Source of the DNA: a virus
DNA length: 64,000 nucleotides
Reading direction: 5' to 3' (one strand)
IMG/VR virus record: IMGVR_UViG_3300007177_000055
Location: 1-64,000 of that record
Part shown: positions 12,029 to 33,556 of the stretch, one piece after another
Layout of the letters: each line of letters opens with the position of its first letter
Numbering within the stretch: the first letter of the stretch is position 1
Position numbers and translations under genes: made by a program
The notes under the pieces: model-generated
What the model was told of the DNA's origin: nothing
Databases searched by the model: none
The model's input: only the letters and a program-made list of their open reading frames with translations

Positions 12029-12329
12029 AAAACCACCTAAAAAACTAGTTACTCGATACCAATACATAGACTTAAACGATAATATTGATGAATTACTAAT
12101 TAAGTTACAAAAAGCAAAGGCTGAAGGTTGGGAGGCTAACGAGCTTTGTGTTGGTGATGAAAGTTGGAGTGATACTAGGTACAACTATCTCATTAAACAA
12201 GAACTAGAAACAGACAAAGAATACGCTACACGTATTGCCGAAGAAAAACAGCAAGAGCAACAAACATTTGAACGCGAACGTAAGGAGTTTGAGCGACTTA
12301 GCAAAAAGTTTAGTAAGGGAAGCACCTAA
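12021..12329 (+). CDS. hypothetical protein (ETD.EY..R family)
   Basis: ELETDKEYATR..ERKEFERLSKKF. Confidence 0.7.
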   Translation: MTKKPPKKLVTRYQYIDLNDNIDELLIKLQKAKAEGWEANELCVGDESWSDTRYNYLIKQELETDKEYATRIAEEKQQEQQTFERERKEFERLSKKFSKGST

Positions 12330-12330
12330 A

Positions 12331-12792
12331 ATGTCTTTTTCAGATCCCTTAGATTACTTACCTGAGTCCCTAAAGGCAGAATATCAACTTGTCTTGACAA
12401 GATGCCTAAAGTTTAACACAAAGCGAGACTACCTTCTTGCCACAAACCGATGGAAAAGAATATACTCACTTCACAGCAAAGCCCGTCGGGACTACAAAAC
12501 TAGCTTTAAAAGGCTAAAAACTAGCCAGTTAGCCCTAGCTAACCTAATGCCAGGAAAAACTTTCAGCAGTTGGCCTTTAGAATTACGACTAGCTTATATT
12601 GCCCTATATCCTTTTAGTTATAAAGCTAAGTATCGCAACCCCAAATATGCTCAAGCTTTGTTGCATATACGGAGACTAATGAAACGTAAGGCTCGTTTAG
12701 AAAGCGAAAGAGAATACTTGAGAGAATACTTGAAACTAAACAACAAAGCAGAGCAACAAGCAAGACAATTAAAGATAAAACCACCGAGATGA
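12331..12792 (+). CDS. basic hypothetical protein (FN.R..YL..W family)
   Basis: FNTKRDYLLATNRWKRIYSLHS; ATG at 12331 preferred over the ORF-track start. Confidence 0.65.
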   Translation: MSFSDPLDYLPESLKAEYQLVLTRCLKFNTKRDYLLATNRWKRIYSLHSKARRDYKTSFKRLKTSQLALANLMPGKTFSSWPLELRLAYIALYPFSYKAKYRNPKYAQALLHIRRLMKRKARLESEREYLREYLKLNNKAEQQARQLKIKPPR

Positions 12793-13298
12793 ACAAAGTC
12801 TTGAAGTGTAATATCAACTTGGAGTACTACTTAGACTTCAACTCCCGAGAAACTTACTTAGCAAAAGTGGCTGTTTGGAAGCACTCGTACAAACGCCGAG
12901 TGCGTTTAGTGCAACTGGAAAAGCGCCAAGCTAGAGCAACTGCCCACCAGCGTAACGAGGTGTTCAGCTTGTTTCAAACCAGCAACTTTTACTACAAAGA
13001 ATGGTATCGGTGGCCTACATGGGCTGTAGCAGCTTTAAAGGCTGGCTTAAAAGAAATAGCCGACCGAGAAACTGAATCTAACAGACAGCAAGCTTTGCTA
13101 CTTGGCGACTTAACCCTAACAAATACCAGTGTAGAGAAATTAGTATCAATACGACAGCTCATGAAAGCTAAATCTCAGTACCTATGGACCCTATCTCACC
13201 CACGTAAAACTCAACCACCATGTCCTACTCAACTCTCACTACACCAAACGGCACCTGCGCTGCAGCTACAGGCCCGCCGCCGGCTGGGATGGTACTAA
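12789..13298 (+). CDS. basic hypothetical protein (FN.R..YL..W family)
   Basis: FNSRETYLAKVAVWKHSY..IRQLMKAKS. Confidence 0.65.
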   Translation: MNKVLKCNINLEYYLDFNSRETYLAKVAVWKHSYKRRVRLVQLEKRQARATAHQRNEVFSLFQTSNFYYKEWYRWPTWAVAALKAGLKEIADRETESNRQQALLLGDLTLTNTSVEKLVSIRQLMKAKSQYLWTLSHPRKTQPPCPTQLSLHQTAPALQLQARRRLGWY

Positions 13299-13501
13299 CC
13301 GTACGTAGAGCTTTTCGTACTCTTGCCGGCTACGATTACTTACCGGGTGACCAGCTTGTTCTACTAAACAAAACTTACACTGGTCAGTACGGTTGGCTAC
13401 ACTCACAAGGTAATTGGATAGTTAGAGATCGGCACTGGACTTCCGAGTGGTCTTGTTTGCCAGACTCTATAGCAGACGGTATTTTGACCATTGAAGACTA
13501 A
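13220..13501 (+). CDS. hypothetical protein
   Basis: ATG ORF with typical composition. Confidence 0.55.
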   Translation: MSYSTLTTPNGTCAAATGPPPAGMVLTVRRAFRTLAGYDYLPGDQLVLLNKTYTGQYGWLHSQGNWIVRDRHWTSEWSCLPDSIADGILTIED

Positions 13502-13722
13502 ACTTTTTAAAACTCTACTACCTTCAAGTTAAACTCATGGCTCACTCTGCTATCCGCACTAACCCCGTTATTTTGCTTGAACTTTCTCCAGAAGAAGCCC
13601 TTTGGCTTAAGAGCAAAAATGCAAAACCCTATTAGATGTTTTGATACACCTGAAAGTGATAAGGATCACAGAATTCGTTGCGCAATCTTTGAAGCACTAC
13701 CTGCCATTAACGAAATTACCCC

Positions 13723-14121
13723 ATGAGCACTCTAAAACTCAAGCCTGAAATCAAAGAAATTTGGTGTAATGCATTGGAGTCTGGAGAATACCCCCAAAGT
13801 AAAGGTAGTCTCTACTCCTCACAGGGTTTCTGTTGTTTAGGGGTCTTAGGAGACCTAGCAGTTAAAGCCGGTGTAGCTAAATGGAAGACTGTTAGGGAAA
13901 ATGAACCTAAACGACTAGTAACCAATAGCGGAGCTAGCCCAGGATATCTAGTATCAGAAGTAATAGAGTGGGCCTGCGTACCCAAAGATTGGGACGAATG
14001 CGACGGGTGCTTTTATCTGCCTGACTCCCATCCTGCAAAACCGTATCGAAGTCTTCCTGAAGCCAATGATATGGGTTTAAGTTTTACCGAAATAGCTAAA
14101 CTTATTCAAAAGCACTTTTAA
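13723..14121 (+). CDS. hypothetical protein (ALESGEYPQ..GFCCLGV family)
   Basis: Clear paralogue of 15109..15525. Confidence 0.8.
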   Translation: MSTLKLKPEIKEIWCNALESGEYPQSKGSLYSSQGFCCLGVLGDLAVKAGVAKWKTVRENEPKRLVTNSGASPGYLVSEVIEWACVPKDWDECDGCFYLPDSHPAKPYRSLPEANDMGLSFTEIAKLIQKHF

Positions 14122-14122
14122 G

Positions 14123-14321
14123 ACTAGGCAGCCTTTCCGGTTGTGGCGGAAGTTTTCTTCCTTTGGTATTATTGTAAAGCCGCTCGGACCATGTGGTGTG
14201 GCGTTCTGCAACCGCCTACAGTAATACCTGTAACTAAGGACCCATCGAGGTCAGTTGTTGGTGCCGACCTTTTCGTTGGGTGAAAGGACAACTGCAAAGA
14301 AAACCCGGCGTAAGTCCTAGC
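14123..14321 (+). ncRNA. candidate ~200-nt structured RNA with pseudoknots
   Basis: Nested helices CTAGG/CCTAG, CCGG/CCGG, GTTTTCTT/AAGAAAAC, GGTATTATTGTA/TACAGTAATACC, ACCCATCGA/TCGTTGGGT, AGGTC/GACCT. No ORF; followed by a terminator. Confidence 0.65.
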
Positions 14322-14323
14322 TC

Positions 14324-14349
14324 AGGCCTCGCAAGAGGCCTTTATTATT
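14324..14349 (+). terminator. intrinsic terminator
   Basis: AGGCCTC-GCAA-GAGGCCT followed by a T-rich tail. Confidence 0.75.
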
Positions 14350-14353
14350 CTTC

Positions 14354-14940
14354 ATGAGACTAACAGATCTTTACCAAGCTTGCAGGGACCACGTTAAAGT
14401 TTTTCCTAAAGGAAACTTAGTGTTAGGTCTTGAGCCTAGCCGTAAAAAAGCGAATACCGTAGATTCCTTAACGGACCACGAGGCGTAGTAATATTCCGCA
14501 CCAAGACACAAGACTTTGTATCTTTTAAGACACAAGCAGTACTACTGCACTGTGAGAAAAAACTTCAAGCTGTGACTAGTTGTGGCATAAACCCCTGCGG
14601 ACCTAGCTTTGATTTAGGCGTACAGTTAATAAACCGAGACTTACTAAAACAAAGTAAAGCAAAAACACAAGACCAACTTATGGATAACTTAGTAAGTCCA
14701 GCAGAACTAGACTCGAACGTAAAGACACTACTTGAGTCTGGGCCTTTTAGTGCTTTGGATTTAGCTAACCTCATTTGGGGTAGCGCTTACTTAACTCCCC
14801 AAGAAATTCCTTCAGAACTAAACTCAGCGTGGGACTCAATACGAGCTCAACTCATAGCTAGAGTTCGAAGGCGTCTTTTAGTTTTAACGGACTCGCTTTA
14901 CTATGCTCCGCTAAACCCACATGAGCCGCCGCACTTATGA
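14354..14940 (+). pseudogene. hypothetical gene(s) with an A-run frameshift near 14445
   Basis: MRLTDLYQAC..PSRKK joins SEYRRFLNGPRG.. and the 14572..14940 frame if one A is added; it may be two genes. Confidence 0.45.
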
Positions 14941-15112
14941 ACCCGAACACCGTAAGGTGTGGCAAGATCCAGTTAGAGACATCTGCCAAGTTATTGACAC
15001 ACACGTAGCTGAACACCTACGCACAGGTAATAGCTGGCACGAGACACAAGCTGAATACCTTAGGGTTTATCTACGCAACTTAAAAGACCACCTTTCTTCA
15101 ACTGAACCATGA
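14921..15112 (+). CDS. small cyanophage-type hypothetical protein
   Basis: W..PV..I...ID.H......TG..WH..QA..LR.Y...LK pattern. Confidence 0.7.
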   Translation: MSRRTYEPEHRKVWQDPVRDICQVIDTHVAEHLRTGNSWHETQAEYLRVYLRNLKDHLSSTEP

Positions 15113-15525
15113 GTTCTCCATTAGGCAAACTTAAACCTGAAATCAAAGCACGCTGGCAAGCAAAATTAGAATCCGGTGAGTACCCACAAGATAAACATCA
15201 GCTAAGATCGCCGAGAGGATTTTGTTGCTTGGGGGTACTAGGAGACTTAGCTGTAGAGGATGGCTTAGCTAGCTGGGATAAAAACGTTTTAGTAGTAAAA
15301 AGTACTGGTCAAAGGGAACCTAGCTCCTTTCCTGTAAGCCTATTAGAATGGGCTTTTGGAGCAGTGCCTGACCAGGCAGTTCTTGAAGGGCGGCGCACAA
15401 CTAACTTTCCGTTTGAAGCGCGGGGCACAACTGACTTTCCGTTTGATCTTTGTTTAACAGAACAGAATGATTCAGCAGGCCTTACTTTTCCTGAGATTTC
15501 CAAACTGATCAAAGAACACTTCTAA
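15109..15525 (+). CDS. hypothetical protein (LESGEYPQ..GFCCLGV family)
   Basis: Paralogue of 13723..14121. Confidence 0.8.
   Translation: MSSPLGKLKPEIKARWQAKLESGEYPQDKHQLRSPRGFCCLGVLGDLAVEDGLASWDKNVLVVKSTGQREPSSFPVSLLEWAFGAVPDQAVLEGRRTTNFPFEARGTTDFPFDLCLTEQNDSAGLTFPEISKLIKEHF
15383..15446 (+). repeat. 30-bp in-frame tandem duplication
   Basis: CGGCGCACAACTAACTTTCCGTTTGAAGCG / CGGGGCACAACTGACTTTCCGTTTGA, encoding RRTTNFPFEA-RGTTDFPFD. Confidence 0.85.
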
Positions 15526-16382
15526 TGCTTAAAGTAACTTTCCAATACCCCGCTACGACAAACTTACTAGAAGAAAACTACGTCAACGTAAACGTACCAT
15601 TCAAAACTTGGGTTTATTCTGGCGGTGAGATACAAGTACGTTTGGTGGAATTACCTAAGCCGCCAGCTGCGGCTAGGTTGTTTGCATTGCTGTGTAACGC
15701 ACAAGACTTCATTGAACTCTTGATGCTAACCAACGCTATCAAAGAAGCCTGCCCTGGTACACCTATACACTTAAGGTGCCCTTACTTGCCAGGAGCTCGA
15801 CAAGACCGAGTTTGCAGTCCGGGTGACGCATTTGCACTTAAGGTTTACGCTCAACTGCTAAACACTCAAGAGTACGCCTCAGTTGAAGTACTAGATCCGC
15901 ATTCAAACGTAGCTCTAGAACTAGTAGACCGAATCTACCCACTAGACGCTGCTGAGTTAGCCGCCAACGTGCTAAAGAACACCGTTGCAGGTCAAAACGC
16001 AGTACCAGACTGGTCAAAAGCTTGGTTAATACAGCCTGATCACGGTGCTGCTGCAAGAATTGCAGCTCTAGCTGATCTATTAAGCATCCCGGTAATCGCA
16101 ACAGGTGTAAAGATAAGAGACTTAACTACTGGAGAAATTACAGGAATTAAAGTCCAAAAACTCCTTTCTGATTACCCTTTGTCAGAATGCAAGGACCACA
16201 CGCTAATTATCGCAGATGACATCTGCGATGGTGGTCGTACGTTTATTGAACTAGCAAAAGTACTCAGCCCTTACCAACCTAAAGCCATCGTGCTGTACGT
16301 ATCACACGGCATCTTTTCCAAAGGCCTAGGAGTCTTTGACGGTTACATAGATCACGTTCTGACACCCTATCATTTCCAATGA
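15525..16382 (+). CDS. prs: ribose-phosphate pyrophosphokinase-like protein (probable Adps of NARP1)
   Basis: YSGGEIQV, PYLPGARQDR, DPHS, PDHGA, IIADDICDGGRTF, SHGIFSKG. Confidence 0.9.
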   Translation: MLKVTFQYPATTNLLEENYVNVNVPFKTWVYSGGEIQVRLVELPKPPAAARLFALLCNAQDFIELLMLTNAIKEACPGTPIHLRCPYLPGARQDRVCSPGDAFALKVYAQLLNTQEYASVEVLDPHSNVALELVDRIYPLDAAELAANVLKNTVAGQNAVPDWSKAWLIQPDHGAAARIAALADLLSIPVIATGVKIRDLTTGEITGIKVQKLLSDYPLSECKDHTLIIADDICDGGRTFIELAKVLSPYQPKAIVLYVSHGIFSKGLGVFDGYIDHVLTPYHFQ

Positions 16383-18001
16383 CTGAAATTACTACTACCC
16401 AAAGCTTGCTACCCTTTCCTCTATTTGCAGTAGATGGCTACAAGCTTGGTCATGCAGACCAAGCTCCGCCTAATACTACAAGCCAGTACTTTAACTTAAC
16501 AGCACGCACCGACCGAATCGCTCGTAAAACAGGTACGGTACTACATGATTTTGACGGCAAAATAGTATGGGCAGGTAACAACCACCTAGCTAAGTGGTAC
16601 TTTAAAGCTTATTGGGATCAAGAGTTCTTTGCTAAGCCTAAAGATTGGGCCGTACAAAAGTTTCAAGAATCTTCTGATAAGTACCTAGGTGCTGGTGTAG
16701 TTTCAGCTAATAGGTGGGAAGAACTTCATTCGCTAGGTCACCTACCTTTGATAATAAAAGCTTTACCTGAAGGAACCCGAGTTCCTATAGGAGTAACGCC
16801 GCTTACCATTAAAGAAAGCAAACCGCAGTTTTACTGGCTTCCTGGTTACGTAGAAACCGCTTTGTCCAGTGAACTGTGGGGTACTTCAACTGTAGCTACA
16901 ATCGCTTTTGAATACCTGAGGCTGCTAACTCACTACGCAGAAATCACAGGTTCACCTAAAGAATTCGTACCTTTACAAGGTCACGACTTTTCAGCTCGGG
17001 GTCTCAAAGGTATTTGTGATGCTGCACACACTCAAGTAGGACACTTGTTTTCGTTTATTGGTACTGACACAGTTTCAGCCATTGAACACGTTCAAAAGTA
17101 CTACGCCCCAGTAGATCCAGACCACTGCATTGGTGTTTCAGTTCCAGCAACAGAACATTCTCAAGCGTGTTTAAATATCAAATGGGAATCGTCTAAGCTA
17201 GACTCTAATCTCAATCTAGACGACCGGTTGCTGTTAGCTGAAACTGCTTTCCTAAAACGCTTGCTCACCGAGGTATATCCCAGTGGGATCTTCAGCTACG
17301 TCACTGACACTTATGACTACTGGGGTGTATTAACTAAAGTACTGCCGTCACTAAAGAAAACCATCCTTAATCGGTTACCTAACGCTTTAGGTTTAGCTAA
17401 GTTAGTCATTCGTCCGGACTCCGGCAACCCAGTACTAATAGTATGCGGTGACCCAAACGCAGAACCTGGCAGCCTACAACACAAAGGTTCTCTGCAAGTG
17501 TTGTGGGAAATCTTTGGGGGTACTACTACCAAAGTAGGTGACAAAGAGTTCAAAGTTTTAAACCCTAAGATTGGTTTGATTTACGGCGATGGTATTCACC
17601 CTACTAGAGCCGCTGAAATCTTACGTCGGATGTACCTTGCTGGCTGGGCTTCTTCAAATGTTGTGTTTGGTATCGGATCATTCACTTACCAGTACCACAC
17701 ACGAGATGACTTTGGTTGGGCTATGAAATCAACTTGGGGTGAAGTTGACGGTGTTGGTTTAGAGCTCTACAAAGACCCTAAAACTGACGACGGTACTAAG
17801 CGATCAGCTCGCGGACTCTTGCGAGTTGAACAAGAAAACGGTACCTATGTTCAATACCAATCCCAAACTAAAGAACAAGAAGCTCAAGGGGCTCTCCAGC
17901 CTATCTTTATTGACTCAATCGTCTACTCTGACGAACACATTGATGAGATCCGCTCACGTTTAGTTTCTGCAGTTTACTGGAACGGTCCGCCTACCCCCTA
18001 A
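16379..18001 (+). CDS. nadV: nicotinamide phosphoribosyltransferase-like protein (probable Namat of NARP1)
   Basis: DGYKLGH, HDFSARG, SVPATEHS, DTYD, IRPDSGNP, IYGDGI, FGIGS, AMK..KDPKTDDGTKRSARG. Confidence 0.93.
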   Translation: MTEITTTQSLLPFPLFAVDGYKLGHADQAPPNTTSQYFNLTARTDRIARKTGTVLHDFDGKIVWAGNNHLAKWYFKAYWDQEFFAKPKDWAVQKFQESSDKYLGAGVVSANRWEELHSLGHLPLIIKALPEGTRVPIGVTPLTIKESKPQFYWLPGYVETALSSELWGTSTVATIAFEYLRLLTHYAEITGSPKEFVPLQGHDFSARGLKGICDAAHTQVGHLFSFIGTDTVSAIEHVQKYYAPVDPDHCIGVSVPATEHSQACLNIKWESSKLDSNLNLDDRLLLAETAFLKRLLTEVYPSGIFSYVTDTYDYWGVLTKVLPSLKKTILNRLPNALGLAKLVIRPDSGNPVLIVCGDPNAEPGSLQHKGSLQVLWEIFGGTTTKVGDKEFKVLNPKIGLIYGDGIHPTRAAEILRRMYLAGWASSNVVFGIGSFTYQYHTRDDFGWAMKSTWGEVDGVGLELYKDPKTDDGTKRSARGLLRVEQENGTYVQYQSQTKEQEAQGALQPIFIDSIVYSDEHIDEIRSRLVSAVYWNGPPTP

Positions 18002-25779: not shown

Positions 25780-26280
25780 TTATTGAAAGACTGATACAAA
25801 CACTGTACCTTGTTTTACTAACGGCAAAACCTTGTCCCTAAGTTCTACGTTGTGGATACGTATACACCCCAAGGTAGGGTATAGGAGTTGCTTAGGTGCC
25901 CAAGCAGCAGGCCAACCGTTAGCTGTACCGCCACCATGTAAACAAATACCAGCCCGGTCATTAGAATCTTCATTACCTTCTAAGTCCACCATATCAAAAG
26001 TAAGCCAACCATAAGCTCGCAGCGTACGATCAAAAGCTGGATGGTCACCAACTCTAGCGTAATCATTAAAAACTTGCCCTAGCTTATATAAACCAGGAGG
26101 AGTATCTCCTGAATTGTTTTTCCAGTTACTAAGTTGTCCTCTGCAAAGTGCGGGAATATCCCAAAGCTTTTTGCCTTCAAAAGAGTACGCCGTTAAGCGT
26201 TCTGTCACATCATTAGCTAAAAGGTGAGAGTCACCTTTTTTAAATCCAAACTCTTGGGGTTTACGGGTAGGACCTACCAT
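25780..26280 (-). CDS. L,D-transpeptidase (YkuD)-like protein, probable endolysin
   Basis: DTPPGLY, GICLHGGG..PTLGCIRIHN (His..Cys catalytic motif); ATG at 26280. Confidence 0.8.
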   Translation of the reverse strand: MVGPTRKPQEFGFKKGDSHLLANDVTERLTAYSFEGKKLWDIPALCRGQLSNWKNNSGDTPPGLYKLGQVFNDYARVGDHPAFDRTLRAYGWLTFDMVDLEGNEDSNDRAGICLHGGGTANGWPAAWAPKQLLYPTLGCIRIHNVELRDKVLPLVKQGTVFVSVFQ

Positions 26281-33535: not shown

Positions 33536-33556
33536 AGGGGGTTGCACCCCCTTTTT
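33536..33556 (+). terminator. hairpin/terminator just before the Ubl gene
   Basis: AGGGGGT-TGC-ACCCCCT-TTTT. Confidence 0.6.

Follow-up and report, generated by a model that had tools for sequence, protein, structure and literature searches.

We tentatively favour a reading in which the spacer behind a PF26948-family gene of a freshwater phage is a conserved non-coding segment of the + strand that would act as RNA through its sequence and local hairpins and would be ended by an intrinsic terminator. The segment is non-coding and conserved, a terminator motif is present, and its local hairpins are stable; its transcription, the position of its ends and its action as RNA are what we infer. In the proposed mechanism, the spacer would most likely be transcribed behind the PF26948-family gene as part of a + strand transcript, which would end at the terminator hairpin at 14324-41, the T-rich tail of which reaches the start codon at 14354. 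The product would be a 3'-UTR-type RNA bounded by the terminator, functioning through its conserved sequence and its local hairpins, namely the 12-bp helix at 14165-14228, the 5' hairpin at 14129-43 and the terminator. The end hairpin would protect the 3' end of the RNA, and the terminator would let just part of transcription continue into the next gene and the distal NAD-salvage genes. The + strand is favoured because the T-rich tail is found only there, and because the two G-U pairs, one in the 12-bp helix and one in the 5' hairpin, would turn into C-A on the opposite strand.

Among the points that weigh against this reading, an island of identity can arise by recent recombination, a constitutive 3' UTR has no obvious need for 200 conserved bases, and the stability of the fold is unremarkable within the genome. 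The spacer matches nothing known, and a hairpin with a terminator in a conserved spacer is nothing out of the ordinary. In compact phage genomes it is rare for a long non-coding stretch to evolve more slowly than the genes around it, and such a stretch beside counter-defence genes is reasonable ground on which to search for RNA-based regulation or an RNA decoy. The spacer is only a candidate in this respect, as the striking fold first proposed for it, closed end to end and doubly pseudoknotted, fails its controls, and what is left standing is a conserved spacer, one strong hairpin and a terminator.

Locus organization and coding capacity

The source record is a linear IMG/VR virus of 125,409 bp (43% G+C, estimated to be 72% complete), and its first 64 kb form the window, by which we mean the whole stretch of DNA analysed here. 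The genes surrounding the spacer all lie on the + strand. The upstream gene (13723..14121, 132 aa) belongs to family phrog_18067 / PF26948, and its TAA at 14119-21 adjoins the spacer, the body of which (14122..14323, + strand) is present as a single copy in the genome and is kept in the relatives' contigs. The spacer body is followed by the intrinsic terminator (14324..14353, + strand), in which the 7-bp stem AGGCCTC/GAGGCCT encloses a GCAA loop and precedes the tail TTATTATTCTTC, and immediately 3' of this tail lies the ATG (14354) of the next gene (14354..14940, + strand). Further 3' on the same strand are a second PF26948 paralogue (15109-15525) and then PRPP-synthetase-like and NAMPT-like genes (15525-18001), which places the spacer between two PF26948 paralogues and 1.2 kb 5' of the latter pair. 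The PRPP-synthetase-like (285 aa) and NAMPT-like (540 aa) genes are adjacent and their ends overlap; judged by their PHROG and Pfam names and by published abstracts, the pair fits Adps and Namat of the phage NAD-reconstitution pathway NARP1. The abstracts related to NARP1 name no RNA resembling the spacer.

The two PF26948 / phrog_18067 paralogues (13723-14121 and 15109-15525) share an invariant GFCCLGVLG-like core. The AlphaFold model of the upstream protein has a pLDDT of 90.9, and its comparison with the solved structures in the PDB gave no clear match (best Foldseek E-value 1.6); the best VIA hit, to GluRS C-terminal domains, has a Z of 4.1, which is under the tool's stated noise level.

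The spacer had been described as free of open reading frames, and across 14122-14349 it is indeed non-coding, the longest ORFs being of 46 aa on the + strand and of 44 and 42 aa on the - strand. The 46-aa + strand frame has no homologue among 5.8 billion proteins, and no frame is conserved in the spacer because the relatives carry indels of +2, -1 and -1; a small protein encoded here was rejected, the homologue search being empty. The description of the spacer as relatively GC-rich is weak, as its excess over the genome is small (0.49-0.51 versus 0.43) and coding windows close by have values of up to 0.48-0.525. Spacers 120-420 nt long occur often in the genome, which has 24 gaps of at least 120 nt. 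The non-coding gap with the highest G+C (0.55) lies elsewhere, at 83052-83226, and holds a further tRNA gene outside the window (83155-83227, or 1656-1728 of locus L015; Rfam tRNA, 47.7 bits).

No tandem array was found at 14122-14349 by Tandem Repeats Finder, and the 125-kb genome holds no second copy of the element, the longest identity elsewhere being one 16-nt stretch. A DGR template repeat or an internal repeat was rejected, as the genome repeats nothing of the element beyond this identity. The 16-nt match is exact, between spacer positions 14291-14306 and genome positions 82566-82581 (L015 1067-1082), which lie inside a 54-aa ORF (blastn-short E 0.006), and it is probably due to chance. 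That the spacer is a decayed paralogue of this ORF was also considered and set aside, just 6 residues being common to both.

Conservation among relatives

The DNA of close relatives was seen as contigs from freshwater metagenomes aligned to the window, from four runs of four studies, and short contigs covering the spacer came from three of these runs (X5, X7 and X8), possibly representing different strains. Divergence from the window, counted as substitutions plus gaps in the X5 and X8 contigs, is 2-6% in the spacer and 4.5-13% in the flanking genes. The X8 contig over the spacer (record 15, 14098-14329) has 9 substitutions and 4 gaps in 232 nt, or 5.6%, compared with 13.1% (49/374), 9.3% (34/365), 7.7% (14/182), 7.9% (12/151), 6.6% (7/106) and 7.2% (15/208) in the flanking X8 records. 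The corresponding X5 contig (record 2, 14017-14286) differs at 6/270 positions (2.2%), compared with 4.5% (10/221) and 11% (27/245) in its flanks. The X8 contigs come in two variants over the upstream gene and in two over 14300-14481, but the spacer is covered by a single one. The conservation of the spacer beyond that of the flanking genes argues for some function.

Similarity of the X5 and X7 contigs to the window begins only at about 13711 (the boundary lies at ~13704-13713, with loose ends of 70-101 nt), so that the gene, the spacer and the next gene travel as one block. To judge by these alignments, the boundary just 5' of the PF26948 gene start marks the mosaic edge of this conserved block.

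The relatives seen are close, at 77-86% identity in protein and 87-98% in DNA. Three relatives of the upstream protein share 86, 80 and 77% identity with it and some 50 others 32-50%, and distant PF26948 genes in two metagenome loci (L012 and L013) and in Synechococcus phage B23 have no spacer behind them. Searches beyond the close relatives returned no further copy. A blastn comparison of 13700-14700 with GenBank phages gave no match, and scans of viral contigs seeded with the upstream protein, the NAMPT-like protein, the phrog_1735 protein and alignments A1 and A5 gave no relative that carries the spacer, the NAMPT-seeded scan returning 10 loci at 30-48% identity. A scan of metagenome contigs with alignment A1 returned three distant loci without the spacer, a scan of genome contigs with alignment A3 returned none, and exact DNA patterns from the element had 0 matches each in viral contigs and genome contigs. 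Finally, a covariance model built from the element and its minimum free energy (MFE) structure (R1) found the element alone when searched against its own 125-kb genome, loci L002-L015, nine IMG/VR records and two GenBank phages (Synechococcus phage B23 and Microcoleus phage My-WqHQDG).

These distributions bear on another account, which we regard as rather unlikely, in which the spacer has no RNA function and is the leftover of a lost gene or a module junction, its similarity among relatives reflecting recent descent or recombination and only the terminator being functional. The closeness of the relatives seen, the failure to find the element in the more distant phages searched and the distant PF26948 genes without a spacer all fit this account, as do fold statistics near chance and a genome in which spacers of this length are common. 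A neutral remnant, however, would be expected to diverge faster than coding DNA and the spacer diverges more slowly; it also yielded no sign of a protein frame.

Predicted structure of the spacer

The sequence-only reading had proposed a discrete RNA of about 200 nt that would act as a ribozyme or a protein-binding scaffold; helices P1-P3 would close it, and two pseudoknots would accompany its two hairpin domains. Every helix on which this rests is present where it was placed: P1 (CTAGG 14124-28 / CCTAG 14316-20); CCGG 14137-40 / CCGG 14305-08; P3 (GTTTTCTT 14152-59 / AAGAAAAC 14297-304); the 12-bp helix P4 (14165-76 / 14217-28, with one G-U pair); P5, the ACCCA.CGA helix (ACCCATCGA 14240-48 / TCGTTGGGT 14273-81, with a T-T mismatch within it); GGTC 14249-52 / GACC 14266-69; and a 7-nt pairing (CAGTTGT 14252-58 / ACAACTG 14288-94). 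Only P1 (0.82), the 12-bp helix (0.99) and a small 5' hairpin at 14129..14143 (CAGCC-UUUCC-GGUUG, with one G-U pair; 0.88) reach high base-pair probabilities, and the remaining helices, including GTTTTCTT/AAGAAAAC and ACCCA.CGA, have probabilities of 0.22-0.49.

The fold as a whole is just marginally better than chance. The + strand of 14120-14352 has an MFE of -77.6 kcal/mol (z -2.01), a stability matched by 8 of 200 shuffles; the - strand has an MFE z of -2.26 against its shuffles. In a genome scan of 2505 windows of 200 nt, regressed on GC, the two windows over the element have z of -0.97 (rank 407) and -1.49 (rank 155). Perfect complementary 7-mer pairs number 4, compared with 1.27 +/- 1.46 in 1000 dinucleotide shuffles, 7.8% of which reach 4. 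The domain of the 12-bp helix (14165..14228, with a 40-nt apical part) is the sole domain clearly more stable than chance when folded by itself (z -2.28), and stems of at least 12 bp with at most one G-U pair and a loop of at most 60 nt number 11 on the + strand of the 125-kb genome. The 3' domain (14240..14294), which holds P5, P6 and the 7-nt partner of the proposed pseudoknot and has two competing folds, is at chance level by itself (z -0.32). The robust structures are only the 12-bp hairpin at 14165-14228, the small 5' hairpin and the terminator at 14324-14341.

The changes seen in the relatives can be set against this architecture. Those discussed here come from 40 of the 164 rows of variants, which hold 7 of the 9 substitutions of the X8 contig and 14 of the 28 of X7 record 9, so that compensation could still be present; the two further X8 substitutions probably lie near the contig ends. 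The substitutions listed within the spacer are 14179 G>A, T>C at 14167 in X8, and T>A at 14207 in X7 and X8; in the 3' domain they are 14273 T>A, 14277 T>A and, in X8, 14274 C>A. Listed indels are an insertion of CT after 14203 and a deletion of 14209 (X7, X8), an insertion of C after 14207 (X5) and a deletion of 14272 (X8). Indels are concentrated at 14203-09, within the apical region of the 12-bp-helix domain. The change at 14167 breaks one pair of the 12-bp helix, and those at 14273, 14274 and 14277 break three pairs of P5, with no change of the partner strand among those listed. P1, the 5' hairpin, GTTTTCTT/AAGAAAAC and the terminator have no variants among the changes listed, which is uninformative either way. 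When the X8 version of the spacer is rebuilt by coordinate, it adopts a different and less stable global fold (-56.4 versus -63.0 kcal/mol). The sequence is constrained, yet its variation lends the proposed architecture no support.

Taken together, a discrete fold of the kind first proposed is unlikely. In its favour, all of its helices exist, the MFE fold holds most of them (z -2.0) and P1 pairs with high probability; P1, P3, P6 and the 7-nt pairing are free of variants among the changes listed, the spacer is more conserved than its flanking genes, and an RNA without an Rfam family would be new. The end-to-end closure is not upheld, however, as the long-range helices other than P1 have pairing probabilities of 0.2-0.5 (0.2-0.45 for P2, P3 and P5), and complementary k-mers are not significantly enriched (fraction 0.078). 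Neither pseudoknot fares better: the longer form of the first (GGTTGTGG / CTGCAACC) is reduced from 8 bp to 4 pairs by the relatives' changes, and the second (CAGTTGT/ACAACTG) is an ordinary competing nested helix in the MFE fold of a 3' domain that is itself at chance level. With natural variants breaking pairs of both P4 and P5 and no compensation among the changes listed, with the X8 version folding otherwise, and with no match to a self-cleaving ribozyme family and no second match to model R1, a ribozyme-like, doubly pseudoknotted RNA of about 200 nt finds no support. The 3'-UTR-type reading has no need of the global closure or of the two pseudoknots, which stand at chance level.

The terminator motif and possible read-through

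The spacer had also been credited with a terminator of its own, and the sequence agrees with an intrinsic terminator: a hairpin at 14324-41 with 7 pairs, 5 of them G-C, and a 4-nt loop is followed on the + strand only by the T-rich tail TTATTATTCT, and a second scan recovered the site. The stem ends 12 nt ahead of the start of the next gene. The terminator stem has no variant among the changes listed, and both X7 and X8 have T>C at 14351. A scripted scan found 15 terminator-like sites, 6 of which sit 8-24 nt behind a stop codon, whereas that of the spacer sits 203 nt behind; such a distance is not unique to the spacer, because 8 of the other 14 sites likewise exceed 24 nt, lying 75 to 1927 nt past a stop. 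Nearer to the upstream gene, at 14134..14161 on the + strand, two weak terminator-like hairpins overlap (14134-52 and 14148-61), each with a T-rich tail, and they may be a first stop signal for the PF26948-family gene. Neither a promoter nor a defined 5' end was detected for the spacer, the sole sigma-70-like site in 13000-15500 being at 13457.

The position of the terminator invites the view that the spacer is a regulated attenuator, riboswitch-like or a protein-dependent antiterminator, in which a ligand or a protein sets the read-through into the 195-aa gene, the second PF26948 gene and the NAD-reconstitution genes. We consider this distinctly improbable. The order of a structured, conserved leader, a terminator and a start codon 12 nt past the stem is the one expected of such a device, and the downstream genes on the same strand include the pair that, by names and abstracts, is Adps-like and Namat-like. 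In the MFE fold, however, the terminator forms independently of the body of the spacer, the two forming together, and neither in this fold nor by eye in the sequence was a convincing antiterminator pairing or a strong competitor found. No known riboswitch class matches, a promoter-like motif (TAAAACAAAGTA) occurs further downstream at 14645, and a hairpin just before a start is also found at other junctions that have no long leader, namely at 33536, 33931 and 81904, where the next start follows 7, 25 and 9 nt past the stem.

A bolder proposal, that the spacer represents a clade-specific structured phage RNA of about 200 nt from an undescribed family in an anti-defence neighbourhood, either an attenuator responsive to a ligand or protein or a trans-acting decoy against host defence, seems to us quite unlikely.

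Comparison with known RNAs

The spacer belongs to no known family in Rfam 15, which gives 0 matches in the element at the gathering score; across the whole window the only matches are 4 to tRNA, none of them within the element. Relaxing the threshold to E <= 10 over 13900-14700 on both strands again returned nothing in the element, with two chance-level snoRNA matches that both fall outside it. None of the self-cleaving ribozyme families or known riboswitch classes of Rfam matches the element, and ARAGORN, which finds 4 tRNAs in the window, places none at 14122-14349 and reports no tmRNA.

In bacteria and phages, small RNAs that derive from 3' UTRs or are bounded by a terminator are non-coding, lie 3' of a stop codon and end in the intrinsic terminator of the operon. 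The spacer resembles them in lying on the strand of the gene behind its stop, in its terminator end and in a conservation of sequence over structure; it differs in its length, which at ~230 nt exceeds that of most, and in being known here from sequence alone. Riboswitch and attenuator leaders are likewise conserved and structured and directly precede a terminator and the start of the next gene, but the spacer has neither an Rfam riboswitch match nor an evident mutually exclusive antiterminator. Type III toxin-antitoxin loci of the ToxIN-like kind have the order of a non-coding RNA, a terminator and an ORF of ~170-200 aa. The order at the spacer is the same, but its RNA has no tandem repeats and the 195-aa protein of the relatives has no Pfam or PADLOC match; a type III antitoxin was rejected, as such an RNA is made of tandem direct repeats. 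Pseudoknotted or self-cleaving RNAs of Rfam, such as tmRNA, glmS, twister and HDV-like RNAs, are alike in size range and in the pseudoknots proposed for the spacer, and differ from it in that neither the relaxed Rfam search nor ARAGORN placed the spacer among them. Furthermore, no reverse transcriptase occurs among the 10 neighbouring ORFs at 12235-18001, as judged by PHROGs and Pfam, which argues against a retron msr-msd.

The next gene and a recurrent 12-mer

In two relatives, P0059 (93% identity) and P0060, the gene after the spacer is a single ORF of 195 aa whose start corresponds to the ATG at 14354. The window has two ORFs in its place, of 44 aa and 122 aa, because the A-run at 14444-49 is one A shorter than in the contigs of runs X6, X7 and X8; this one-base difference may reflect either a true frameshift or a fault in the assembly. 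P0061 (99 aa), a relative at greater distance, corresponds to the C-terminal part only, from the equivalent of the ATG at 14681. The AlphaFold model of the 195-aa protein is unusable (pLDDT 34.7), and the attempt to infer a partner protein from folds was abandoned, as the PF26948 model, which is confident, has no match in the PDB.

The 12-mer TAAAACAAAGTA occurs exactly at 14645, 21930, 32992 and 41984 on the + strand and with one mismatch at 25806 (- strand) and 60594 (+ strand). These 6 matches at up to one mismatch compare with an expectation of 1.6, and a count of 6 was reached in 1 of 100 shuffles. Three of the four exact copies lie shortly 5' of a start codon, and the 12-mer may be a phage promoter motif. 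The copy at 14645 lies within the 195-aa ORF of the relatives.
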